Virus record (IMG/VR): IMGVR_UViG_3300028283_000231
Reading direction: 5' to 3' (one strand)
DNA length: 64,000 nucleotides
From: a virus
Taxonomy: Duplodnaviria > Caudoviricetes
Under the pieces are notes generated by a model, which ran no database searches, was not told the DNA's origin, and saw only the letters and a program-made list of their open reading frames with translations. Position numbers and translations under genes: made by a program. Below, piece by piece: positions 1-24,843 of the stretch. Numbering within the stretch: position 1 is the first letter of the stretch; every line of letters starts with the position of its first letter.

Positions 1-50
1 GTTTTGAGACGATTCGATGCGTCACAATAAAAATGTAATCTGAAAACAAA

Positions 51-106
51 GAATACTTACAGCAAATAAAAAACTTTCTTCCAAAAAGTGAATAAAAAGT
101 ATTCTG
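51..106 (+). ncRNA. Stem-ACAGCAA structured RNA motif, copy 1, containing a Gly(UCC)-like anticodon stem-loop
   Basis: GAATACTT (51-58) pairs with AAGTATTC (97-104); ACAGCAA at 59-65; inner hairpin ACTTT-CTTCCAA-AAAGT at 73-89. Confidence 0.5.
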
Positions 107-112
107 TAATAC

Positions 113-184
113 GCAGGAGTAGTACAATGGTTAGTACGTCGGCTTGCCAAGCCGAGGATGTGAGTTCGATTCTCATCTCTTGCT
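113..184 (+). tRNA. tRNA-Gly(GCC)
   Basis: Cloverleaf: acceptor GCAGGAG/CTCTTGC, anticodon arm TCGGC-TTGCCAA-GCCGA, T loop TTCGATT, U73, no encoded CCA. Confidence 0.93.
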
Positions 185-202
185 CTATATATTAAAATAA
201 AT

Positions 203-274
203 GCGAAAGTAGTATAAAGGCTATTACTCCAGCCTTCCAAGCTGGACATGAGGGTTCGATTCCCTTCTTTCGCT
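203..274 (+). tRNA. tRNA-Gly(TCC)
   Basis: Acceptor GCGAAAG/CTTTCGC, anticodon arm CCAGC-CTTCCAA-GCTGG, T arm GAGGG-TTCGATT-CCCTT. Confidence 0.93.
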
Positions 275-279
275 CAATT

Positions 280-351
280 GCGAATATAGTTCAGTGATAG
301 AATATTTGCTTCCCAAGCAAAGGGTAGTGGGTTTGAGTCCCACTATTCGCT
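280..351 (+). tRNA. tRNA-Gly(CCC)
   Basis: Acceptor GCGAATA/TATTCGC, anticodon arm TTTGC-TTCCCAA-GCAAA, T arm GTGGG-TTTGAGT-CCCAC. Confidence 0.9.
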
Positions 352-353
352 CA

Positions 354-434
354 GAGATTAACTTACCTTTATTGATGCACACCATTGCGTGATTGGTAGG
401 AGATGTGGAGTAATTCTCCATCTACGTTAATCTC
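354..434 (+). ncRNA. tRNA-sized structured RNA of unknown class
   Basis: Perfect 9-bp closing stem GAGATTAAC/GTTAATCTC encloses two hairpins (TTACC...GGTAG and TGGAG-TAATT-CTCCA); lies between tRNA genes. Confidence 0.45.
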
Positions 435-443
435 AAAATTATT

Positions 444-542
444 GCGGAGGTAGTTTAGTGGGAAAATTGCCATGATCAGCCATACTGTTTAAGTGCAGAT
501 GAATTTGGTGGGTAGTCAAAGGTTCGAATCCTTTTCTTCGCT
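444..542 (+). ncRNA. tRNA-like RNA with Gly-type acceptor, D and T arms and an expanded, non-canonical anticodon arm
   Basis: Acceptor GCGGAGG/TCTTCGC plus U73, D arm GTTT-AGTGGGA-AAAT, T arm AAAGG-TTCGAAT-CCTTT; about 34 nt replace the 7-nt anticodon loop. Confidence 0.7.
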
Positions 543-544
543 CA

Positions 545-650
545 GGGTGGTTGGTATAATAGGTGAAACCATCAATGTTCTCGCCCTTCCCAGTAGCTTC
601 GGTGATTAATAGAACTTCGGTTCGCTGACCAAGGATAAAAGAGAACGCCC
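545..650 (+). ncRNA. Branched structured RNA of unknown class
   Basis: GTTCTC/GAGAAC and CCTT/AAGG stems, two C-UUCG-G tetraloop hairpins (GAAC-TTCG-GTTC is perfect), 5' GGGT able to pair with 3' GCCC. Confidence 0.45.
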
Positions 651-656
651 AACAAT

Positions 657-739
657 GCGGCTATCGTATAATGGCAACGAGAGTTAGATTATGTCGGTCT
701 TCCAAACCGAGGATGTGAGTTCGATTCTCACTAGCCGCT
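657..739 (+). tRNA. tRNA-Gly(TCC) with a hairpin insertion in the D loop
   Basis: Acceptor GCGGCTA/TAGCCGC, anticodon arm TCGGT-CTTCCAA-ACCGA, T arm GTGAG-TTCGATT-CTCAC; D loop contains extra AAC-GAGA-GTT. Confidence 0.85.
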
Positions 740-743
740 CAAT

Positions 744-811
744 GAATGCTCACAGCAACCAAAAGCTTTAATAAGCAACAAACTTGTAATTTGTAGAAAA
801 AAAGCATTCTG
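744..811 (+). ncRNA. Stem-ACAGCAA RNA motif, copy 2, containing a Thr(UGU)-like anticodon stem-loop
   Basis: GAATGCT (744-750)/AGCATTC (803-809); ACAGCAA at 752-758; ACAAA-CTTGTAA-TTTGT at 778-794. Confidence 0.5.
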
Positions 812-815
812 TATA

Positions 816-897
816 TGGCCCTGTAATGGCAGAGTCTTCTAAACTCTAAGCGCATAATGGAAACTGAAAATAAGGGTTCGAGTCCCTTCTGGGTCAC
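816..897 (+). ncRNA. D-armless tRNA-like RNA with Arg(TCT) anticodon loop and long variable region
   Basis: TGGCCCTG/CTGGGTCA acceptor-like stem, only TAATGGC in place of a D arm, AGAGT-CTTCTAA-ACTCT, T arm AAGGG-TTCGAGT-CCCTT. Confidence 0.6.
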
Positions 898-942
898 AAA
901 ATAAATAATTAAAATTGATTTTTTTATATTAAAACTTTGTCG

Positions 943-950
943 TATATTTG
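943..950 (+). promoter_or_regulatory. Bacteroidota sigma-A -7 element (TAnnTTTG)
   Basis: TATATTTG in an intergenic gap, upstream of the second tRNA group. Confidence 0.55.
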
Positions 951-995
951 CAATAAGAAACTAAAATTTAAAGAAAGGAAATGACGTTAAATCAA

Positions 996-1077
996 GTTGG
1001 ATAATGGAAACCCAGCCTGCCTCACTAGCAAGGAAATGAAAGTCCGAATCTTTCTCCGCCCTACTCAAAAAGGGGCG
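996..1077 (+). ncRNA. Degenerate, possibly permuted tRNA-like element
   Basis: D-like arm GTTGG-ATAATGGAAAC-CCAGC, 7-nt loop CTCACTA, T-like arm GAAAG-TCCGAAT-CTTTC; its acceptor complement GGGGCG lies downstream, not upstream. Confidence 0.35.
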
Positions 1078-1144
1078 TGTGGGTAAAAGCCAAATGATGT
1101 CGAAATAGTGTAACGAGATTTGAATATATAATTGATTATCAAAT

Positions 1145-1216
1145 GGTTCCGTAGATCAACGGATAGATCGGGTGACTTCTAATCTCCAGATACAGGTTCG
1201 ATTCCTGTCGGGACTA
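1145..1216 (+). tRNA. tRNA-Arg(TCT)
   Basis: Acceptor GGTTCCG/CGGGACT, loop CTTCTAA, T arm ACAGG-TTCGATT-CCTGT. Confidence 0.9.
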
Positions 1217-1229
1217 CAAATGGAAAACA

Positions 1230-1298
1230 GCGGATGTGGTGTAATGGTAACATACTTGCTTTGGGAGCAAGGGTAGCGGTTCAAGTCCGACATCTGCT
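1230..1298 (+). tRNA. tRNA-Pro(TGG) with a shortened T stem
   Basis: Acceptor GCGGATG/CATCTGC, anticodon arm CTTGC-TTTGGGA-GCAAG; T stem only CGG/CCG. Confidence 0.7.
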
Positions 1299-1341
1299 AC
1301 AAGGATTTAAGTTCAAAACAGAAAAAACTGACTTTTATATA

Positions 1342-2958: not shown

Positions 2959-3864
2959 ATGATTGGAAGAATAAACTATGGTGGTGTAACATGGGAGCAT
3001 CTTGTTAAACCAACTAGCGCTGAATTTATAGAAATAAAAGACGCTTATAATTTTCACCCTCTCACTATGGAAGACTGTAAAACTAATAGTCTTCATCCAA
3101 AGGTTGATACATATGATGGTTACTATTTTTTAAACTTGCATTTTCCATATTTAGATAAATCTGGAACAGTAGTAGATATTAAAGAGGTAAAAATATTTTG
3201 GGGAAACAATTTTCTTGTAACTATTGGAAAAACACATTGGTTGTTTACACAAGAATTTGAAAAGGAAAAAGCTTTAGCGTCAGATAAAAGAATGGTAGTA
3301 ACAAGTTCTGATATGCTTCTCTACACTCTACTTGATAAAGTTATGAAGGCTACTCAGCAATTAGTTGATAAAGTTGACGAAGAGGTTGATAAATGTGGTA
3401 AATCTATTTTCGGTAAAAGAGCAGAAAAAATAATTGAACATATTAGTATTACTAGGAAGAATGTTATCGTGATGAATACTATGTTCAAACCACAGTTAGC
3501 TATTTTCAGTAAACTCACCAATGGAGCAATTAAAGGTTTTGCTGAAGATATGGAAAACTACTGGGGTAACATTCACGATTATTACCAGAATATATGGGAC
3601 ACAGTTGAAGACGCTGGTGAACTTATAAAGGGTTATAGTACAACATTCGACTCTTTACAGGTAAATAAAACAAACGAAGTGATGAAAATATTAGCTTTAG
3701 TTTCTTCTATTTTATTACCAATATCGTTCTTAGCTAATCTTTACGGTATGAATATTAAAATACCTTTTCAGAACCACGATCAATTTTATATGTATCTTGG
3801 TGGTTTAATGTTAGTTATGATAGTTGGAATGTTTTCGTATTTCAAATTTAAGAAATGGATGTAA
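2959..3864 (+). CDS. corA: CorA/ZntB-family Mg/Co/Zn transporter
   Basis: FHPLTMED, HPKVDTYDGYYFLNLHF, TNEVMKIL, YGMN signature and two C-terminal TM helices. Confidence 0.92.
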   Translation: MIGRINYGGVTWEHLVKPTSAEFIEIKDAYNFHPLTMEDCKTNSLHPKVDTYDGYYFLNLHFPYLDKSGTVVDIKEVKIFWGNNFLVTIGKTHWLFTQEFEKEKALASDKRMVVTSSDMLLYTLLDKVMKATQQLVDKVDEEVDKCGKSIFGKRAEKIIEHISITRKNVIVMNTMFKPQLAIFSKLTNGAIKGFAEDMENYWGNIHDYYQNIWDTVEDAGELIKGYSTTFDSLQVNKTNEVMKILALVSSILLPISFLANLYGMNIKIPFQNHDQFYMYLGGLMLVMIVGMFSYFKFKKWM

Positions 3865-4587: not shown

Positions 4588-4672
4588 GCCTGGTTCCGAT
4601 AGCGATCGATTCGACCTGTTTCGTAAACAGGAGTATGATATACCATCGTTGGTTTGAATCCAACACCAGGCT
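4588..4672 (+). tRNA. tRNA-Thr(CGT)-like gene with long variable arm and atypical D arm
   Basis: Acceptor GCCTGGT/ACCAGGC, CCTGT-TTCGTAA-ACAGG, variable hairpin GTAT-GAT-ATAC, T arm GTTGG-TTTGAAT-CCAAC. Confidence 0.75.
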
Positions 4673-4704
4673 CGAGAGTACATTAAAAAATAATAATAGA
4701 ATTA

Positions 4705-4923
4705 ATGAAATATTGTAAAGTTTGCGGTGAAGAGATTCCAGAAGGAAGAGTTAAGGCGTTACCAAACGCTGAGACCTGTGTGGAACATTCAGGAGCAAAA
4801 AAGAAGAAAGGATTTGTTGTAATTAGTAGTAAAACTACATACAGCGAATTAGATATAGTGGATGATAACACTTATAAAATGTTAAAGAAATTAGATAGAG
4901 ACGGTTGGCACGCTTGTAATTAA
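4705..4923 (+). CDS. TraR/DksA-type C4 zinc-finger protein
   Basis: CKVCGEEIPEGRVKALPNAETCVEH matches the DksA/TraR finger pattern. Confidence 0.8.
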   Translation: MKYCKVCGEEIPEGRVKALPNAETCVEHSGAKKKKGFVVISSKTTYSELDIVDDNTYKMLKKLDRDGWHACN

Positions 4924-4944: not shown

Positions 4945-5628
4945 ATGAAAAAGATTCAAATCGAAATCATGGCTTCCGAGGGAGGTAATGATTCAAAACT
5001 ATTAGTGGTAGATCTTATGGATATTTATATCAGATCAGCAAAAAACCAAAACTTCAATTGAAGAGTAGTTGAAGTCAAAGATGGTTTTGCTTCGATATGA
5101 ATAGAAGGTGATAGCGTAAACAAATTTTACGCAAACGAAAGTGGAGCACATTGCTTTTCGAGGATACCACCAACAGAAAGAAATGGTAGAACTCAAACAA
5201 GTATAGTTAAAGTGGCGATAATGAACCCAGAAAAAGAAGCGGGATACGTTTTGAATAGAAATGATGTAACAAAAAATTATATCAGATCTTCAAAAAAAGC
5301 GGGTGGCCAAAATTTAAACAAAGTTTCTTCTTGTGTTCAATTAATACATATTCCAACTGGTATTCAGGTTAAAGTTCAGGACACAAGAGATCAAACCAAA
5401 AATGAAATTATCGCGTGGGAAAGATTGACTCAAAAATTAAAAGTCATCGAAGACAAGAACGATCGTGAAAAAATTGATAACAAACGCAAGGATCAAATTG
5501 GAGAACATGGTAGAGGAAATAAAAGAAGAACATACAGATTGAAAGAAGATATCGTGCAAGATCATATCACTGGCAAATCATGTAGATGGAAGGATATATT
5601 GAAAGGTAAAATAGAGTTACTTTTCTAA
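4945..5628 (+). CDS. Class I peptide chain release factor homolog (RF1-like PxT, GGQ; lacks domain 1) with in-frame TGA at 5059 and 5098
   Basis: Reading from ATG 4945: EIMASEGGNDSKLLVVDLMDIYIRSA...NFN*RVVEVKDGFASI*IEG...ESGAHCFSRIPPTERNGRTQTS...KKAGGQNLNKVSSCV...RRTY; in frame with track ORF 5212-5628. Confidence 0.85.
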
Positions 5629-5784: not shown

Positions 5785-6423
5785 ATGAATTTCACAATAT
5801 ATGGATTGAAGGAGAAGGGCAATGATGAAATCAAATATATTGGTTTAACAACATCTAAATTAAGCATTAGATTCAGTAAACATTTAAGTGATAAAAAGGT
5901 TGATCATAAAACCAATTGGATAAAAAAAATTGGCAAGGATAATGTTGAAATTGTTGTTATAGAAGATGAAATATCAGATATAGATACATTACATGAAAAA
6001 GAGATATTTTATATTAATAAATATAAAAAGGAAGGCCATAATTTAACTAATATAACTAATGGTGGAGAAGGCTGGTATAATATGGTTTTCTCAGATGAAC
6101 ACAAAAAAAATATTAGTTTAAATCATGCTGATGTAAGTGGAGAAAATAATCCCATGTTTGGTAAAGAACACACTATTAATGTGAAAAATAAAATAAGGGA
6201 TTTTAGATTGAATTATAAAATTTCAGATGAAACAAAAGAAAAAATGAAGTGTAGTAAATTAGGTGAAAAAAATACTAATGTTAAATTAACATCCGATGAT
6301 GTATTGAAAATAAGACAATACGTTAATGAATACACACAAAAGGAATTAGCATCTATGTTTAATGTTAAACCTGGGGCAATTAGTAAGATAATAAATCACA
6401 CTACTTGGAAACATTTAAAATGA
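5785..6423 (+). CDS. GIY-YIG homing endonuclease with NUMOD3 and HTH
   Basis: IYGL...KYIGLT...R...H, LTNITNGGEG, GENNPMFGK, C-terminal HTH. Confidence 0.88.
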   Translation: MNFTIYGLKEKGNDEIKYIGLTTSKLSIRFSKHLSDKKVDHKTNWIKKIGKDNVEIVVIEDEISDIDTLHEKEIFYINKYKKEGHNLTNITNGGEGWYNMVFSDEHKKNISLNHADVSGENNPMFGKEHTINVKNKIRDFRLNYKISDETKEKMKCSKLGEKNTNVKLTSDDVLKIRQYVNEYTQKELASMFNVKPGAISKIINHTTWKHLK

Positions 6424-6962
6424 ATTATATGAGTTATTTTGATAATTTCGTTTTGGCGCCTTATATTTTAAAAGCGACAGCTCTTATAGGGGTTCATCGT
6501 AAATGTGGCGGAAATCAATTTCGTCATCAATTCGCAACACTTGGAATCTTATTAGACTATAAATATTTCAATGATTCGGTTCTTTTAAAAGCCGCGTTGT
6601 TGCATGATATTATAGAGGACGTTGTCGATTCAGAAATGGATGCTATTCGTTCTTTAGATGGTGACGGACAAGCAGTTATAAACTTAGTACAAGAAGTATC
6701 TAAAAGTAAGGAGGAGACTAAGGCTGATTATCTTAAAAGAATTTTGGAAACTGGTTCGGATAGGGCTAAGATTTTGAAATGTGCAGATAGAATCAGTAAT
6801 CTTACTGATATGCACTTAGATACACATACATCAGGTAAGATAGCACAATATCTTGATCAGACTGAGCGGTATATTATTCCAATGGCTCTTTCTATTTCTA
6901 ATCTTGATTTTGTAAGGGAATTAGCAGATTTAATTATTCAGAGAAGATTATTAATTGCGTGA
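6420..6962 (+). CDS. HD-domain hydrolase, Mesh1/SpoT-like small alarmone hydrolase
   Basis: H..R..G...F.H, AALLHDIIED, KCADRISNL; ATGA overlap with upstream gene. Confidence 0.8.
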   Translation: MNYMSYFDNFVLAPYILKATALIGVHRKCGGNQFRHQFATLGILLDYKYFNDSVLLKAALLHDIIEDVVDSEMDAIRSLDGDGQAVINLVQEVSKSKEETKADYLKRILETGSDRAKILKCADRISNLTDMHLDTHTSGKIAQYLDQTERYIIPMALSISNLDFVRELADLIIQRRLLIA

Positions 6963-7230
6963 AATGGACAACACGGTTGAAGTAGCAAAAGATTTCATTA
7001 AGGATATTGATGAAATTATAGAAGAAGGTTGGTCGGAAGACAGGGATTATCTAGCCGAACAATTTGTTAAATATGCTAGTTTAATTGATAATAAAATGAT
7101 AACTAAAGATTGTCAGGCGTTAGATTTTAAAAATTGTGAATACTGGCAAAATACATTATACGGTTGTTCTAGCTGTTATCATTGGCATAAATTCGAAACG
7201 AATTCAAAATTTAATTATAATATAACTTGA
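6955..7230 (+). CDS. Hypothetical protein
   Basis: ORF track, tightly packed in operon. Confidence 0.5.
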   Translation: MREMDNTVEVAKDFIKDIDEIIEEGWSEDRDYLAEQFVKYASLIDNKMITKDCQALDFKNCEYWQNTLYGCSSCYHWHKFETNSKFNYNIT

Positions 7231-7562
7231 ACACAACTCTTTATAGACCAGTAAATAAAGCAGAATTGGATCTTATCATAGCAAGCGATTGGACCCAATT
7301 TCCACCACGTTTACCCGAGCAACCAATATTCTATCCAGTTCTTAGTTTAAGTTACGCTAAGAAAATAAACGAATGGAACGTAAACGCTTACGGTGAAGGG
7401 TTTATAGTGGAATTTCAAATTGATAATATGTATTTAGTTATACATAATATTGATGTTCATAATGTTGGAGATAAAGACGATAATGAATTTTGGATAAGAG
7501 CAGATCAATTAGATTCTTTCAATAAAAATATAGTAGGAAAAATAAAATTATGTATTACATAG
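7227..7562 (+). CDS. Small protein of the family annotated ADP-ribosylation/crystallin J1-associated
   Basis: TLYRPV...EL.LI..S.W..FPPRLPEQPIFYPVL, recognised family pattern. Confidence 0.65.
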   Translation: MNTTLYRPVNKAELDLIIASDWTQFPPRLPEQPIFYPVLSLSYAKKINEWNVNAYGEGFIVEFQIDNMYLVIHNIDVHNVGDKDDNEFWIRADQLDSFNKNIVGKIKLCIT

Positions 7563-8344
7563 TACAAGAAAGATTATACAGAGAAGACGAGTGGGACGAT
7601 CTTATTCACGCACTGGAAAGATTCAATCTTAATTACGAGATTGTTAAACTTATTCCATTCGTTGACGATTTTGAATTTGAGACAAAAGAAAAAAATGTCT
7701 TTTGTTTTGGTGCGCTTAAGATGGCAAGACTTGCTCCAAAGTACGGTTGGTATCCTGGAATTCTTATGACGCCTAATCACGATTTTAATGTTTATAAAGA
7801 ATATTACAAAGAAAACTTATTGAATTATGACTCAAAAATATACAGAATATCCGAAGATTTTGAATGGAACGGTGATTTCTTTGTTAGGCCTGTATTGGAC
7901 ACTAAGATTTTTAATGGAAGACCTTATGCCATGCAAGACTGGAAAAAAGAAAGCAATCGTCTCTTGTGTAACTCCAAAAGTGATAAGGATAATGGAATAA
8001 CCAACATAGTTAGCGAAGACACTCTTATACAAGTTAGTAGTCTTAAAAATATTCAAAAAGAATTTAGATTCTATATCGTTGATGGTAAGATAGCTACAGC
8101 GAGCCTTTATAAAGAAGGATATTTTGTGAGGTATAGTGATATAGTTGATCAAGGGGCTATAGATTATTGTAACGAGATGATAAAAGTGTTTCAGTTGGCT
8201 GACGCTTTTGTAATGGATATTTGTTTGACTGACGATGAGTGGAAGATAATTGAGTGTGGTTGCCTTTCGTGCGCTGGTCTCTACAAAGCTAACATACCTA
8301 AACTTCTAATGGCATTAGAAGATAAATTTAACATTGAGATATAA
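7550..8344 (+). CDS. ATP-grasp protein (DUF4343/R2K-like)
   Basis: FFVRP..DTK.FNG, EFRFYIVDGKI, FVMDIC, IIECGC.SCAGLY. Confidence 0.75.
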   Translation: MYYIVQERLYREDEWDDLIHALERFNLNYEIVKLIPFVDDFEFETKEKNVFCFGALKMARLAPKYGWYPGILMTPNHDFNVYKEYYKENLLNYDSKIYRISEDFEWNGDFFVRPVLDTKIFNGRPYAMQDWKKESNRLLCNSKSDKDNGITNIVSEDTLIQVSSLKNIQKEFRFYIVDGKIATASLYKEGYFVRYSDIVDQGAIDYCNEMIKVFQLADAFVMDICLTDDEWKIIECGCLSCAGLYKANIPKLLMALEDKFNIEI

Positions 8345-9582: not shown

Positions 9583-10284
9583 ATGGATTTTACAAAGTTT
9601 ACAGTTAAAGCAAAAACCGCAATCCAAAAGGCTAGAGAGATTGCCCAAGTCAAAGGACATAAATCTATTGAAACTTCACATATTCTTAAAGGGATTATGT
9701 TAGTTGACGATAATGTTGCTCCTTACATTCTTAAAAAGATGAATGTTGACGTTGACCTTCTTATGAAGATCGTTGATAATATTATAAAATATTATCCAAG
9801 AGATCTCATTAGTAGAGAACACTTGTCACCTTACTCAAATCAGGCATTAGATAGAGCTATCACTTATTCTCTTGAATATGGTGATGAGTTTGTTTCTGTT
9901 GAACATATTCTTATGGGTATTCTTGGTGGAACAGACGTTTTAGCTAAAGAGTTTGTAAAAGAAGGTATTACAATAGAAGGGATTAAATCTGGTTTAGAAG
10001 ATATTAGAAAAGGTGTTAAAATCACTTCTCCAGAAGCTGATATAGCAATCAACGCCACAAATAAATATACTAGAAATCTTAATGAATTGGTAAAAGCAGG
10101 CAAACTTGACCCAGTTATCGGAAGAGACGACGAAATTAAAAGAATTCTTCAAATTCTTTCAAGGAGAACAAAAAATAATCCACTTATCATAGGTGAATCG
10201 GGATGTGTAGACGGTGATACTATTATTACTATTAGAAAAATTTCAAATGATACTACACATGAAAATATAGAAATAGACTATTAA
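9583..10284 (+). CDS. clpB: ClpB-like ATPase, N-terminal fragment fused to split-intein N part
   Basis: Clp_N repeats, KLDPVIGRDDEIKRILQILSRRTKNNPLIIGESG then CVDGDT... Confidence 0.92.
   Translation: MDFTKFTVKAKTAIQKAREIAQVKGHKSIETSHILKGIMLVDDNVAPYILKKMNVDVDLLMKIVDNIIKYYPRDLISREHLSPYSNQALDRAITYSLEYGDEFVSVEHILMGILGGTDVLAKEFVKEGITIEGIKSGLEDIRKGVKITSPEADIAINATNKYTRNLNELVKAGKLDPVIGRDDEIKRILQILSRRTKNNPLIIGESGCVDGDTIITIRKISNDTTHENIEIDY
10204..10281 (+). mobile_element. Split intein N fragment, only 26 aa
   Basis: Block A CVDGDTII directly after the Walker A half GESG, stop after 26 residues. Confidence 0.85.
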
Positions 10285-10341
10285 ATTTTTATATATAACT
10301 TTATCAGGGACAGGAAAAAACCTAACCCTGATGAACTAAAT

Positions 10342-11511
10342 ATGGAAATAAATATAAAAGGTAAACAAAAATTAATATTATCTGATTTTATTGAATTTTA
10401 CGATTATGTTATTAATAATATAATTTTTGAATTGAAATTTGATAAAGATAAAAAATTAGAGCGTTTTTATGAAAATAATAATTATATAAATGGAATAAAA
10501 TTATTTAGATTGAAAATAAGATCTATGTATTATAATTTAACAACATTAAAAATTGATTATTGGTTAAGTAGAGGATGGTCATATGATGAATCTGTAAACA
10601 GAATAAAAGAAATACAATCTATTAGAAGTAATATTTCTAAAGAAAAAATGTTAACATTAAAAGAAATAGATTATAAAAAATGGTGTGAAACGCGTAACAC
10701 AAGGAAAGAATTTTATATGAAGAAGGGGTTAACAGAAGAAGAATCTGTAGATCTTTTAAAAGATAGACAAAAAACATTTTCAATAGAATCCTGTATAATT
10801 AAATATGGCGATAATGGATATGATGTGTGGAAGAATAGGCAAATTAAATGGTATAGTAAAATAAAGAATATAGATTGTGATAGAGATTCAAATTCATCTG
10901 ATTTCTATAAAAATAAATATGGTGATAATTGGATTTTTAAAGCAATTGATGATTGTTCTTTTTTAAATAAAGATTTAATTAAAAATATTATTCAAAAAAC
11001 GAATAATGATTTTGTGTTTTTCATTAAAGAATTAGATGAAAGAATAGAAATAGTAGCTTTAAACGACATTTATTTCATATTTAATTCAAAACTATTGCAA
11101 AATTATTTTGGTAAAAATAAAGAAGAATTAACTGAAATAATATTAGGCACATTAAATATAAACATAAAAGGATTTGGAAATATAAGATATTTCAACAGAC
11201 ATATATGTAGAAGTAATGGAGAATATTATATAGCTAAAAAATTAAAAGAACTTAACATAGATTATGTTTATGAGAAAAAATATCCAAATTCAAAATATGT
11301 CTGTGATTTTTATATACCAATTTTAAATCTTTACGTTGAATATATGGGTATGCTAAAAAGTAATTATATACAAGAAAATCGTCTTGACATATATTTAAAA
11401 TATAAAACTAGATATGATGATAAAGAGAAATTTTGTAAAGATAATAATATAAAATATTTATTTAATAATAATATGGTGGAAATAATAAAAAAAATAACAA
11501 ATGGAAATTAA
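10342..11511 (+). CDS. Free-standing homing endonuclease (PD-(D/E)xK/Vsr-like C terminus) between the split-intein halves
   Basis: SNGEYYIAKKL...YVYEK...CDFYIPILNLYVEYMG; N-terminal W.SRG/KYG repeats. Confidence 0.78.
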   Translation: MEINIKGKQKLILSDFIEFYDYVINNIIFELKFDKDKKLERFYENNNYINGIKLFRLKIRSMYYNLTTLKIDYWLSRGWSYDESVNRIKEIQSIRSNISKEKMLTLKEIDYKKWCETRNTRKEFYMKKGLTEEESVDLLKDRQKTFSIESCIIKYGDNGYDVWKNRQIKWYSKIKNIDCDRDSNSSDFYKNKYGDNWIFKAIDDCSFLNKDLIKNIIQKTNNDFVFFIKELDERIEIVALNDIYFIFNSKLLQNYFGKNKEELTEIILGTLNINIKGFGNIRYFNRHICRSNGEYYIAKKLKELNIDYVYEKKYPNSKYVCDFYIPILNLYVEYMGMLKSNYIQENRLDIYLKYKTRYDDKEKFCKDNNIKYLFNNNMVEIIKKITNGN

Positions 11512-11911
11512 AATTGAAGATTTTTATAATTTAATTAAAAATGATGGTGGCACTTTTGAAGTACTAACGCCAGATGGATTTAAATTAATTGGATATGTTT
11601 ATAAAAAAAATAATAAACAAATATATTCAATAAAATTAGAAAATGGTTTAATCTTGAAAGGTTCAAATGATCATCTAGTTAAAATATATACGTATAATAT
11701 TGAAGAAAACAATATTAACCCTAATATAGAAATATTAGATAACGATACATGGATTAGATTTTCTAATATTAAATATAATGATATAATATGCACTAAAATT
11801 GGAGAATTCAGTGTAGTTAAAATTGACAAGTTAAATAAAAATATAACATATGATTTAGAAGTATTGGATGATAGACACCAATATTATTCTAATGATATAA
11901 TTTCTCACAAT
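11501..11911 (+). mobile_element. Split intein C fragment, 137 aa
   Basis: Block B-like GSNDH, block F YDLEV, terminal HN followed by Thr +1. Confidence 0.85.
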
Positions 11912-13525
11912 ACTGGTAAAACTGCTGTAGCACTTGGTATAGCACACAAGATTGTTAGTGGTGACGTTCCAGATAGTCTGAAAACTAAACAAATCTATTC
12001 ACTTGACCTCACAAATATTGTATCTGGGGCTAAATATAAAGGTGAATTCGAAGAAAGACTTAAAGGCGTCTTTAACGAAATTATCGCATCCAACGGTGAG
12101 ATCATTCTTTTCATTGATGAGATTCATAACCTCATTGGAACTAACGGGGGTGAAGGTTCAATGGATGGTGCTGATATTCTTAAACCCATATTATCAAGGG
12201 GTGAGATGTTAGTTATTGGTGCTACTACTACAAAGGAGTATCATAAATATTTTGAACAAGATAAATCATTTGAGCGTAGATTTCAAACTGTTACCATTGA
12301 AGAACCAACAGTTGAAGAAGCTATTGCCATCTTAATAGGATTGAAAGGAAAATATGAAACTTTCCACAATGTAACTATTAAAGATGAAGCTGTTGTGGCT
12401 GCAGTAGAACTTTCTAAAAGATATATTTCTAATAGATTTTTACCAGATAAAGCCATTGATATTCTCGATGAGGCCTCTTCTAAATTAAAGTTGGACGCTG
12501 AAGTAAAAGAAAAAGTGGTTGACGCCGATCAAATTGCTATAGTTGTATCGGAAGTAAGTCAAATTCCTGTTAATAAATTAAAAGGCAGTGAAAAGGAAAG
12601 ACTTGTAAATCTTGAAAAAGAATTACATAAAAGGGTTATTGGACAAAATGAAGCCATCAAAGCTGTTTCAGATGCTATACGTAGAAGTAGAACAGGTCTT
12701 CAAGATCCAAAGAAACCCATCGGTTCATTCATATTCCTTGGTACCACAGGGGTTGGAAAAACAGAGCTTGCTAAGGCTCTTGCTGAATTTCTTTTCAATG
12801 ACGAAAATTCTATGGTTAGGATTGATATGTCTGAATACATGGATAAAAGCTCAGCTAGTAAACTTATTGGTTCTGCACCAGGTTACGTTGGTTATGATGA
12901 GGGTGGACAACTCACTGAAGCAGTTAAGAGGAAACCTTATAGTGTAGTTCTCCTTGATGAAATCGAGAAGTCCCACCCAGACGTCTTTAATACACTTTTA
13001 CAGGTATTGGACGACGGTAGATTAACAGACAATAAAGGTTATCTTGTTGATTTCAAGAATACTATTATAGTAATGACTTCAAATCTCGGTTCTAGCATCA
13101 TTCAGTCTAATATGCAAGGAATGACTGATGAGACAAGGGATGAAGTTATTAAGAAAACAAAAGATGAAGTTATCGCGATGTTAAGGAGAACAATTAGACC
13201 AGAACTTCTTAATCGTATTGATGAGACTATTGTATTCCAACCTCTTACAAAATCTGAAATTCTTGATATTGTTAAGATGCAGTTTAATGGTATAAAGAAG
13301 ATGTTAAAGAAGAATGGTGTGGATATGACGGCATCTGATGAAGCTTTAAAACAGATTGCTGAGTGGGGATATGATCCTCAGTTTGGTGCAAGACCTGTTA
13401 AGAGGGTAATTCAGGAAAAAGTTATCAATGTACTTTCTGGTTTAATGTTGGAAGATAAGGTATCGAAAGATAATGCAATATTTATTGATGTAAAGGACGG
13501 TCAGTTATTATTTATAAATAAATAG
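11501..13525 (+). CDS. clpB: Split-intein C part fused to the ClpB-like C-terminal fragment (rest of NBD1 and NBD2)
   Basis: ...YYSNDIISHN/TGKT, LFIDEIH, GTTGVGKTELAK, RIDMSEY, LLDEIEKSHPDV, FGARP. Confidence 0.93.
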   Translation: MEIKIEDFYNLIKNDGGTFEVLTPDGFKLIGYVYKKNNKQIYSIKLENGLILKGSNDHLVKIYTYNIEENNINPNIEILDNDTWIRFSNIKYNDIICTKIGEFSVVKIDKLNKNITYDLEVLDDRHQYYSNDIISHNTGKTAVALGIAHKIVSGDVPDSLKTKQIYSLDLTNIVSGAKYKGEFEERLKGVFNEIIASNGEIILFIDEIHNLIGTNGGEGSMDGADILKPILSRGEMLVIGATTTKEYHKYFEQDKSFERRFQTVTIEEPTVEEAIAILIGLKGKYETFHNVTIKDEAVVAAVELSKRYISNRFLPDKAIDILDEASSKLKLDAEVKEKVVDADQIAIVVSEVSQIPVNKLKGSEKERLVNLEKELHKRVIGQNEAIKAVSDAIRRSRTGLQDPKKPIGSFIFLGTTGVGKTELAKALAEFLFNDENSMVRIDMSEYMDKSSASKLIGSAPGYVGYDEGGQLTEAVKRKPYSVVLLDEIEKSHPDVFNTLLQVLDDGRLTDNKGYLVDFKNTIIVMTSNLGSSIIQSNMQGMTDETRDEVIKKTKDEVIAMLRRTIRPELLNRIDETIVFQPLTKSEILDIVKMQFNGIKKMLKKNGVDMTASDEALKQIAEWGYDPQFGARPVKRVIQEKVINVLSGLMLEDKVSKDNAIFIDVKDGQLLFINK

Positions 13526-23999: not shown

Positions 24000-24843
24000 T
24001 GTGATTGATTCTGAATTAAAGGCTTATCTAATTGGACTTTTTTATGCTGATGCTTATCTATCAGATCGTGTTTTACAATTATATTTGTCTATAAAAGACA
24101 AAGAGTATGTTGAAAAATTAGCAAATATATTAGGAGTTAAAACACATAATAAAAAATTATCTATTGGATTTAATATATGCAACAAAAAAATTGTAGATTC
24201 CTTGTATAAAATGGGATTTATTAAAAGGAAATCATACCAAAGAGATGATATAGTCTTTAAAAATATACCAGATGAATTAAAAAGACACTTTATTAGGGGG
24301 TATTTTGATGGTGATGGAACAATATACATATCTAAATATAAAAAGAAAAATGTTGATTGGAAGGAAAGTATTAAATATGGAATTGGTTTTATATCAATAA
24401 ATAAAGAATTATTGAATAGTATTAAAAATTACTTCTCTGTATCATTAAGTTTATCAGATAAAAAACTGAGAAGTGAAAACTCTGGAAGATTTATAAGTGA
24501 TATTAACGATGAAGATCCATATGGTGAAGAACAATGGGAAAACAACGAAATTAAATATATTAGACTGATTTATAGTGGAAACATTATTTGTAAAAAAATA
24601 TTAGATTTTTTATATGAGGGATCTACTATCTATATGGATAGAAAACATGATAAATATAAAGAGATAAGTATATTTAAACCGAAAAATTATCATTTTCATA
24701 AAAGAAGTAATAAATGGAGATATGTGTATGATGATAATGGATTAAAGAAGTATAAATTGTTTAAAACAGAAGATGAAGTTAAAAACTTTATAAAAAATAA
24801 AATTAAAAATTATGAAAGCTTTACTAGCAAAATGGTTGGATAG
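23983..24843 (+). CDS. Two-motif LAGLIDADG homing endonuclease with AP2-like C terminus
   Basis: AYLIGLFYADA and HFIRGYFDGDG; overlaps both DUF2828 fragments. Confidence 0.88.
   Translation: MKINFDVIDSELKAYLIGLFYADAYLSDRVLQLYLSIKDKEYVEKLANILGVKTHNKKLSIGFNICNKKIVDSLYKMGFIKRKSYQRDDIVFKNIPDELKRHFIRGYFDGDGTIYISKYKKKNVDWKESIKYGIGFISINKELLNSIKNYFSVSLSLSDKKLRSENSGRFISDINDEDPYGEEQWENNEIKYIRLIYSGNIICKKILDFLYEGSTIYMDRKHDKYKEISIFKPKNYHFHKRSNKWRYVYDDNGLKKYKLFKTEDEVKNFIKNKIKNYESFTSKMVG

Follow-up and report, generated by a model that had tools for sequence, protein, structure and literature searches.

The control of a release factor by a stop codon within its own gene is a textbook case that, to our knowledge, is restricted to bacterial RF2 and to a +1 frameshift at a UGA codon. 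UGA is terminated only by RF2. Overexpression of release factors is harmful and recoding autoregulates RF2; the frameshift motif of its gene, prfB, never contains TAG, and no programmed frameshift was seen in the RF1 gene, prfA, among more than 12,000 genomes (Prince et al. 2025, PMC12421855). RF1 and RF2 are encoded by huge phages, and the report that surveyed these phages makes no mention of interrupted release-factor genes (Al-Shayeb et al. 2020, PMC7162821). In our full-text literature searches, we came upon no account of phage RF1-type genes with in-frame stops or frameshifts.

Here we examine such a gene in a 64,000-nucleotide stretch of the virus record IMGVR_UViG_3300028283_000231 (Caudoviricetes), hereafter called the window, which belongs to a contig of 108,427 bp. 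Over 75% of its length, the contig (30% GC) is colinear with positions 388 to 287 kb of the 735-kb phage genome LR756501, the nucleotide identity being 80 to 93%. It is thus a fragment of a Mahaphage-type genome of several hundred kilobases, as judged from LR756501, and the “provirus” label that it carries in IMG/VR was rejected on the basis of this colinearity. Bacteroidetes hosts were predicted for all genomes larger than 634 kb in the survey of huge phages (Al-Shayeb et al. 2020, PMC7162821).

An RF1-like factor gene interrupted by two TGA codons

The gene occupies positions 4945 to 5628 on the plus strand, as a frame of 227 codons that starts with an ATG at 4945 and closes with a TAA at 5626 to 5628. 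As originally predicted, the frame holds TGA at codon 39 (5059 to 5061, plus strand; AAT TGA AGA) and again at codon 52 (5098 to 5100, plus strand; ATA TGA ATA), wherein A is the +4 base in both cases and the codons define columns 39 and 52 of the family alignment. The translated sequence matches the Pfam models PCRF (PF03462; residues 2 to 90, E 2e-16, 60.7 bits) and RF-1 (PF00472; residues 102 to 207, E 9e-24, 84.1 bits). The best NCBIfam model is RF1 at 165.7 bits, aligned to positions 104 to 333 of 347, with lower scores for prfB (118) and prfH (67.7); all three fall below cut-off, which is 400 for the RF1 equivalog and 166.65 for the PrfH model TIGR03072.

The RF1 models align to the phage factor only from model positions 104 to 112 onward, and the protein consists of domains 2 to 4. 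A TAA lies immediately 5′ of the ATG, and the upstream ORF (4705 to 4923, plus strand) encodes a TraR/DksA-type zinc finger (Pfam zf-dskA_traR). Thus, the roughly 105 residues of domain 1 are truly absent, and the protein is not a full-length RF1 orthologue. The two functional motifs are preserved, as had been claimed from the sequence: the PxT-type codon-recognition tripeptide is PPT (residues 75 to 77, 5167 to 5175, plus strand), with the Pro at its center being characteristic of this phage family, and the catalytic GGQ (residues 120 to 122, 5302 to 5310, plus strand) is invariant among 55 aligned homologues. Both Trp codons of the C-terminal half (158 and 215) are TGG, again in agreement with the prediction.

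An AlphaFold model built from the alignment of 55 homologues is confident (pLDDT 89.7) and resembles ribosome-bound RF1 (TM 0.90) more closely than RF2 (0.84 to 0.86) or PrfH (0.66). Both TGA codons fall inside predicted β strands (residues 38 to 45 and 48 to 55), which agrees with their anticipated placement. We also considered whether the first TGA stands for the conserved Trp of RF1, and rejected this assignment, as the alignment puts that Trp at Phe37, two residues earlier. By its profile scores, fold, and tripeptide the factor is RF1-like, which suggests that it reads UAA and UAG.

Neighboring genes at 5785 to 8344 and 9583 to 13525 encode a GIY-YIG/NUMOD3 homing endonuclease, an HD-domain hydrolase, an R2K ATP-grasp protein, a Clp_N protein, and a ClpB/ClpC-like AAA+ ATPase. 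A CorA gene lies at 2959 to 3864, and genes for a cation-efflux protein and adenylosuccinate synthetase are found further on. An RtcB ligase homologue at 22272 to 23312 matches only the C-terminal two thirds of its Pfam model, and a LAGLIDADG endonuclease gene (23983 to 24843) is located just downstream of it. An RF-1-domain gene was found exactly once in each of the five phage genomes searched.

In-frame stops across the gene family

A gene with two premature stops could be a decaying pseudogene or the result of an assembly error, all the more so as TGA otherwise terminates in this genome. TGA ends 31 of the 95 contig ORFs of at least 150 amino acids (56 end with TAA and 8 with TAG, and 394 TGG codons lie inside), and the four ATGA overlaps cited in the original prediction (6420, 15055, 17640, and 31170) are all present. 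In the whole contig no other real gene with an internal TGA was found, the remaining TGA-containing frames being antisense or out of frame. Some relatives of the gene do look damaged, with an extra TAA (L072), a frame break near GGQ (L095), or a scrambled N-terminus (L084). The stops of the window gene, however, recur well beyond the window.

A tblastn search of phage records, together with pattern scanning of IMG/VR, gave 417 relatives. The 86 loci that were analyzed correspond to 72 unique sequences and, with the three damaged ones set aside, to 69 clean homologues from huge phages. Among these, 58 carry a 0-frame stop (TGA, rarely TAG), 6 need a +1 frameshift, and 5 are intact. The 0-frame stops are confined to four columns (37, 39, 44, and 52 in window numbering), at which they recur between sequences that are as little as 35 to 45% identical. 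The most widely used is column 52, with 33 TGA and 3 TAG codons; at column 39, TGA is present in 13 of the 69 and the remainder have Y, T, V, or C. These two columns include the TGAs of the window. Column 37, which is Phe in the window and matches the position of cellular RF1's conserved Trp, has a stop in 20 sequences, and column 44 in 8. In some genes (L068, L073), a TGA at column 44 is accompanied by a TAG at column 52. LR756501, which was assembled independently, has both TGAs, and the first 68 residues of its factor are the same as those of the window.

In 22 pairs of homologues, dN/dS is 0.0 to 0.29 for codons 1 to 51 and 0.04 to 0.25 for codons 53 to 227; thus, both sides of the stops are under purifying selection in the same frame, including the upstream portion for which this was in question. 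Over its 227 codons the window gene has no internal TAA or TAG, in a genome of 30% GC. Relative to LR756501 (L001, 2983 to 3660), the first 51 codons have a dN of 0 and a dS of 0.07, whereas codons 53 to 227 have a dN of 0.28 and a dS of 1.4, far beyond the divergence of the flanking genome (88 to 92% nucleotide identity). The gene is thus a mosaic, which suggests that recombination took place within it.

Sequencing support for the stops comes from Logan contigs of four lake runs, two of DNA and two of metatranscriptomes, which match the window exactly across the two TGA codons. One RNA-library contig covers 4735 to 5669, encompassing most of the TraR-like gene and the entire release factor gene. 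This is no proof of transcription, because DNA can contaminate RNA libraries. The presence of the TGAs in the RNA-library contigs nevertheless argues against RNA editing.

UGA-C and UGA-A are the leakiest termination contexts. At the 78 in-frame stops of the family, the +4 base is A in 42 cases, C in 31, G in 5, and T in none, whereas the genuine TGA terminators of three of these genomes are followed by T in 38 to 49% and by C in 3 to 13%. Leu codons directly after the stop are CTN without exception (31 of 31), against a TTR share of 47% among the Leu codons elsewhere in the same genes. Neither count consists of phylogenetically independent events, but the pattern is still seen across clades at 35 to 45% identity. 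A U at +4 makes bacterial termination stronger (PMC5289835). That a weak +4 context is under selection indicates that a release factor competes at these codons, and it disfavors the view that UGA is a plain sense codon in some host or state.

Six of the phage homologues have a +1 frameshift cassette at these positions. In three (L097, L103, and L110), the sequence AGGGGT CTT TGA, which is the prfB cassette, occurs at about column 37 and the ORF goes on in the +1 frame; in the others (L066, L078/L080, and L104), CTT TAG C at column 52 is likewise followed by an ORF in the +1 frame. No prfB-type slippery site is present in the window gene, whose ORF stays in frame 0 through both stops. A scan of 185,579 species genomes returned 80 loci of the family from bacterial genomes and MAGs, many of them of Myxococcota. 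Frameshift sites are found in the forms CTT-TGA (40), CTT-TAG (18), and CTT-TAA (1), with a GGAGG-like element before most of them, as well as 14 loci with a 0-frame TGA and 5 that are intact. One fragment, 70% identical, was binned with Muribaculaceae. Different recoding devices thus occupy the same place in one gene family, which is hard to explain except by regulation.

In light of these findings, we regard a decaying pseudogene or an assembly error as extremely improbable. The same stops are found in independent assemblies and four sequencing runs, they recur in diverged relatives, selection is purifying on either side of them, the +4 context is non-random, and frameshift cassettes stand at the same places. 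On this comparative sequence evidence, the release factor gene is judged to be functional and its in-frame UGAs to be a selected feature.

Hairpins had also been predicted after both TGAs. RNAfold, applied to the 48 nucleotides following each stop, confirms both: one spans 5068 to 5096 (plus strand; −8.8 kcal/mol, z −1.9) and ends just before the second TGA, and the other, of 7 bp, spans 5114 to 5132 (plus strand; −7.1 kcal/mol, z −1.6). The first is also formed by LR756501. A role for them in stimulating readthrough is not borne out, as RNAalifold revealed no consensus structure after the stops among 36 aligned homologues and the mean family z of −0.79 is near that of control segments (−0.53). 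As a separate observation, one subclade (the L061 to L090 group) places the column-52 stop in the loop of a possible 5-bp hairpin made by the codons on either side (GTTAG...CTAAC), whose window equivalent is weaker (CTTC...GAAG).

Two broader uses of UGA were tried and rejected. A selenoprotein, with UGA read as Sec, is disfavored by the lack of conserved structure after the stops, by the replacement of TGA with TAG at column 52, and by our finding no long-arm tRNA-Sec. Genome-wide recoding was assessed by counting in-frame junctions, defined as pairs of ORF segments, each of at least 80 codons, joined in frame by a single stop; TAA junctions give the chance level, since TAA cannot be a sense codon. 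This count replaced a comparison of ORF coverage under codes 11, 4, and 15 in 8-kb loci, which was too noisy, especially at high GC. The contig has 1 TGA, 0 TAG, and 5 TAA junctions, LR756501 (735 kb) has 7, 8, and 52, and a 318-kb relative that is 96% complete by CheckV (G003) has 5, 3, and 30. The TGA junctions do not exceed the TAA chance level, and a code in which TGA specifies Trp (code 4) was therefore discarded. For the same reason, the idea that the phage represents an intermediate of genetic-code switching is not supported in any of the three.

A second UGA at a Trp position was noted in the contig at about 104,655 (minus strand), about 16 kb past the end of the window. The protein encoded there has three repeats, each ending in an R-W-Y-K-K-G-K-L linker, and the TGA occurs at the Trp position of the third repeat's linker. 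This candidate was set aside as a probably genuine terminator, followed by T and with the next stop 20 codons on.

A putative translational gate and its possible decoders

We consider it probable, if by no means assured, that the two codons constitute a translational gate, wherein the full-length phage factor would be made only if ribosomes decode UGA 39 and UGA 52 in frame, and its synthesis would be inverse to RF2 activity. Ribosomes that terminate would release just a 38- or 51-residue peptide and those that read through would yield the factor, for which reason the stops could act as a gate or sensor. The likeliest decoder would be tRNA-Trp, acting by near-cognate readthrough. Given that RF2 alone terminates at UGA and that both UGAs have a weak context, a fall in RF2 activity or a gain in UGA-reading tRNA would be expected to increase output steeply, approximately with the square of the readthrough rate. 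Since the factor presumably reads UAA and UAG, the UGAs of its gene would monitor RF2 rather than the factor. A possible benefit is that termination capacity for UAA and UAG would be supplied only when termination is limiting, as an excess of release factor is harmful.

The conditional switch put forward in the original prediction, dependent on UGA readthrough, is in our view the best reading of the recurrence of the stops, the dN/dS values, the weak +4 context, and the frameshift cassettes. What the sequences show is these features and the absence of genome-wide recoding; readthrough itself, the residue inserted, the control by RF2, and any gain for the phage are our inference. Several considerations weigh against such a gate. 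With two UGAs in series, hardly any protein would be expected if UGA leaks at the rate that is normal for bacteria. As the factor has the appearance of an RF1, UGA would report on RF2 rather than on the factor, and a phage motive for this arrangement is conjecture. The swap of UGA for UAG in the cassette of close relatives also does not fit a purely RF2-specific sensor.

A dedicated decoder was sought among the tRNA genes. No tRNA with a UCA anticodon was found among the 15 to 20 tRNAs of the contig, either by ARAGORN in its standard, intron, and relaxed modes or with the Rfam tRNA model. The 108-kb contig is a genome fragment, in which such an absence is uninformative, and its 735-kb relative is the best proxy; there too, ARAGORN reported no tRNA(UCA) among 59 to 66 tRNAs of LR756501. 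The scan for a tRNA with a TCA anticodon that was proposed along with the original prediction thus came back empty in both. None was found in G003 or in the scanned tRNA clusters of a 482-kb genome that is 100% complete by CheckV (G002). One relative that is more distant, G005, has a tRNA(UCA) gene.

LR756501 has two tRNA(CUA) and two tRNA-Trp(CCA) genes, and both of the latter have 4-bp anticodon stems, with an unpaired terminal pair that is A27·C43 in one and C31·C39 in the other. Similar 31:39 mismatches are present in G003 and G004, whereas the tRNA-Trp of G002 has a normal stem. A tRNA-Trp(CCA) whose stem is 4 bp long raised UGA readthrough about 2.5-fold in Escherichia coli (PMC13092985). 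The shortened stem was rejected as a Trp-specific mark, being weakly informative: 13 of 59 LR756501 tRNAs have such a mismatch, and the tRNA-Trp of G002 has none. The stems of the LR756501 tRNA-Trp genes are a lead to the UGA decoder, not a finding.

These tRNAs bear on a different account, wherein the stops would be a timer set by a phage suppressor and the factor would appear late, once the phage has altered how stop codons are read, much as has been suggested for the code-switch modules of recoded phages. The weak stems of the tRNA-Trp genes and their precedent in E. coli are in keeping with it, as are the tRNA(UCA) of the distant relative, the tRNA(CUA) genes of several relatives, and the modules of RF1, suppressor tRNA, and TrpRS in TGA-recoded phages (Borges et al., bioRxiv 2021.08.26.457843). 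We nonetheless hold this account to be unlikely. LR756501, which was circularized (PMC7162821), has no tRNA(UCA), nor do G003 or the scanned clusters of G002, and with mismatches so frequent among LR756501 tRNAs, two of two Trp genes is weak evidence. There is, moreover, no recoded gene set to switch on, since no other genes use in-frame TGA, and a selected weak +4 context speaks of competition with RF2 and not of efficient cognate decoding.

Further peculiarities of the tRNA genes were recorded. Genes for the amber suppressor tRNA(CUA) are common in these huge phages (LR756501 690585 to 690738, and also G001, G002, and G005) and in-frame TAG is scarce; in LR756501, 8 TAG junctions compare with 34 TAG-terminated long ORFs, a slightly raised ratio. 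tRNA-like genes with anticodon loops of 6 or 8 nucleotides or with very long extra arms occur in LR756501 (c204050-204160, c204243-204333, and c228902-229090) and in a cluster of G001, one gene of which has a 6-nt loop containing UCA. The tRNA array at window positions 1 to 1300 (20.5 to 25.8 kb of the contig) is restricted to the codon boxes of Arg, Thr, Val, Ala, Gly, and Pro. Rfam finds in it tRNA-like genes that ARAGORN misses or reads differently, at 444 to 542 (with a 39-nt insert in the anticodon arm), 657 to 739 (with a 14-nt insert in the D-loop), and 817 to 896 (weak score); no clear UCA anticodon was seen in these three. Conversely, ARAGORN but not the Rfam tRNA model reports at 4588 to 4673 (plus strand) an atypical 86-nt gene that resembles tRNA-Thr(CGU) and has a long extra arm; it is syntenic with a normal 74-nt tRNA-Thr(CGU) of LR756501 and is no UGA decoder.

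The specificity of the factor itself affects how the gate would be read. By the tripeptide rule attributed to Ito and colleagues (2000), Pro in the first place together with Thr in the third is said to denote UAA and UAG. Within the family, the tripeptide varies to SPT, PPN, and PAN. The residue three before the tripeptide is Ser in the window, S, V, I, or L in the window clade, and Gln in other clades; the GRxHTS segment is GRTQTS in the window clade, with Gln replacing His. From termination-complex structures, we take the Gln of RF1 at the first of these positions to serve in third-base recognition, where RF2 has Val, and the Gln and His that other clades keep are presumably RF1's own decoding residues. 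The tripeptide variants, the altered decoding positions, and the UGA/UAG swap leave a UAA-only or broadened specificity as a candidate.

Classical autoregulation, wherein a broadened phage factor reads UGA (and UAG) and the product would thus read its own stops as prfB does, draws on the same variation in the tripeptide and on the S, V, I, or L found in place of Gln. It also draws on the interchange of CTT-TGA and CTT-TAG (40 versus 18) in an otherwise identical cassette, for which prfB has no TAG counterpart in 8,164 genomes (PMC12421855), and on the genes that hold TGA and TAG together. The profile scores and fold, however, are nearer to RF1 than to RF2, and the combination of Pro and Thr in the tripeptide reportedly specifies UAA and UAG; we judge autoregulation of this kind to be quite improbable. 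In a related proposal, the stops would be part of a phage program that reshapes termination in infected cells, and readthrough would switch on a factor whose decoding pocket is altered such that its specificity is non-canonical, either UAA-only or able to read all three stop codons. This we regard as distinctly unlikely, if a shade less so than autoregulation. If true, phage termination would no longer depend on the host's RF1 and RF2, and the gate would be a sensor, occurring in nature, that measures release-factor activity through readthrough.

Should the RF2-responsive gate work as inferred above, it would represent a natural, compact sensor of RF2 activity and would point to the control of termination as something that is at stake when huge phages take over host translation. 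It would also be a warning to annotators, as such genes are routinely split or called pseudogenes. The family spans phages and mobile elements, and the window, from a relative of the largest known phage, offers a clean example of the putative double-readthrough form.

Comparison with known systems

The closest parallel is prfB. In both, a release-factor gene has a conserved premature in-frame stop early in its ORF (codons 39 and 52 of 227 in the window; 58 of 69 homologues in the family) that sets full-length synthesis against termination, and relatives of the window gene carry the literal prfB cassette, as AGGGGT CTT TGA or GGAGG..CTT TGA. The prfB device consists of a Shine–Dalgarno-like element, CUU UGA C, and a +1 frameshift, whereas the window gene has two 0-frame UGAs and would depend on readthrough. 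The prfB site is in domain 1, and the stops of the window gene are in domain 2. Furthermore, RF2 reads the UGA of its own gene, whereas UGA is probably not a codon of the RF1-like phage factor, and UAG is used by relatives of the window gene but never by prfB (PMC12421855).

With cellular RF1 (prfA), the window factor shares the PCRF and RF-1 domains, a PxT-type tripeptide, GGQ, and its fold (TM 0.90). It differs in the absence of domain 1, in its score of 165.7 against a cut-off of 400 bits, and in having Ser and Gln at two decoding positions. Moreover, cellular prfA is not known to undergo programmed recoding (PMC12421855). PrfH, which is paired with RtcB2, also lacks domain 1 and is similar in length, and an RtcB gene is present in the same window. 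However, the PrfH score of 67.7 is well under 166.65, the TM value is 0.66, the RtcB gene is 17 kb away, and the window factor keeps an RF1-like recognition loop.

The code-change modules of Jade phages resemble this locus in that an RF1-type factor is encoded by phages that also have translation genes and tRNAs (Borges et al., bioRxiv 2021.08.26.457843). In those modules the factor gene is written in the standard code, next to tRNA(UCA) and TrpRS, and the late genes are full of in-frame TGA. In the window this order is inverted, with TGA situated in the release factor gene and the rest of the genome not recoded. Viewed as a whole, the family, with 0-frame UGA, 0-frame UAG, CUU-UGA, and CUU-UAG as putative gates of an RF1-type factor, departs from what has been described for release-factor genes.
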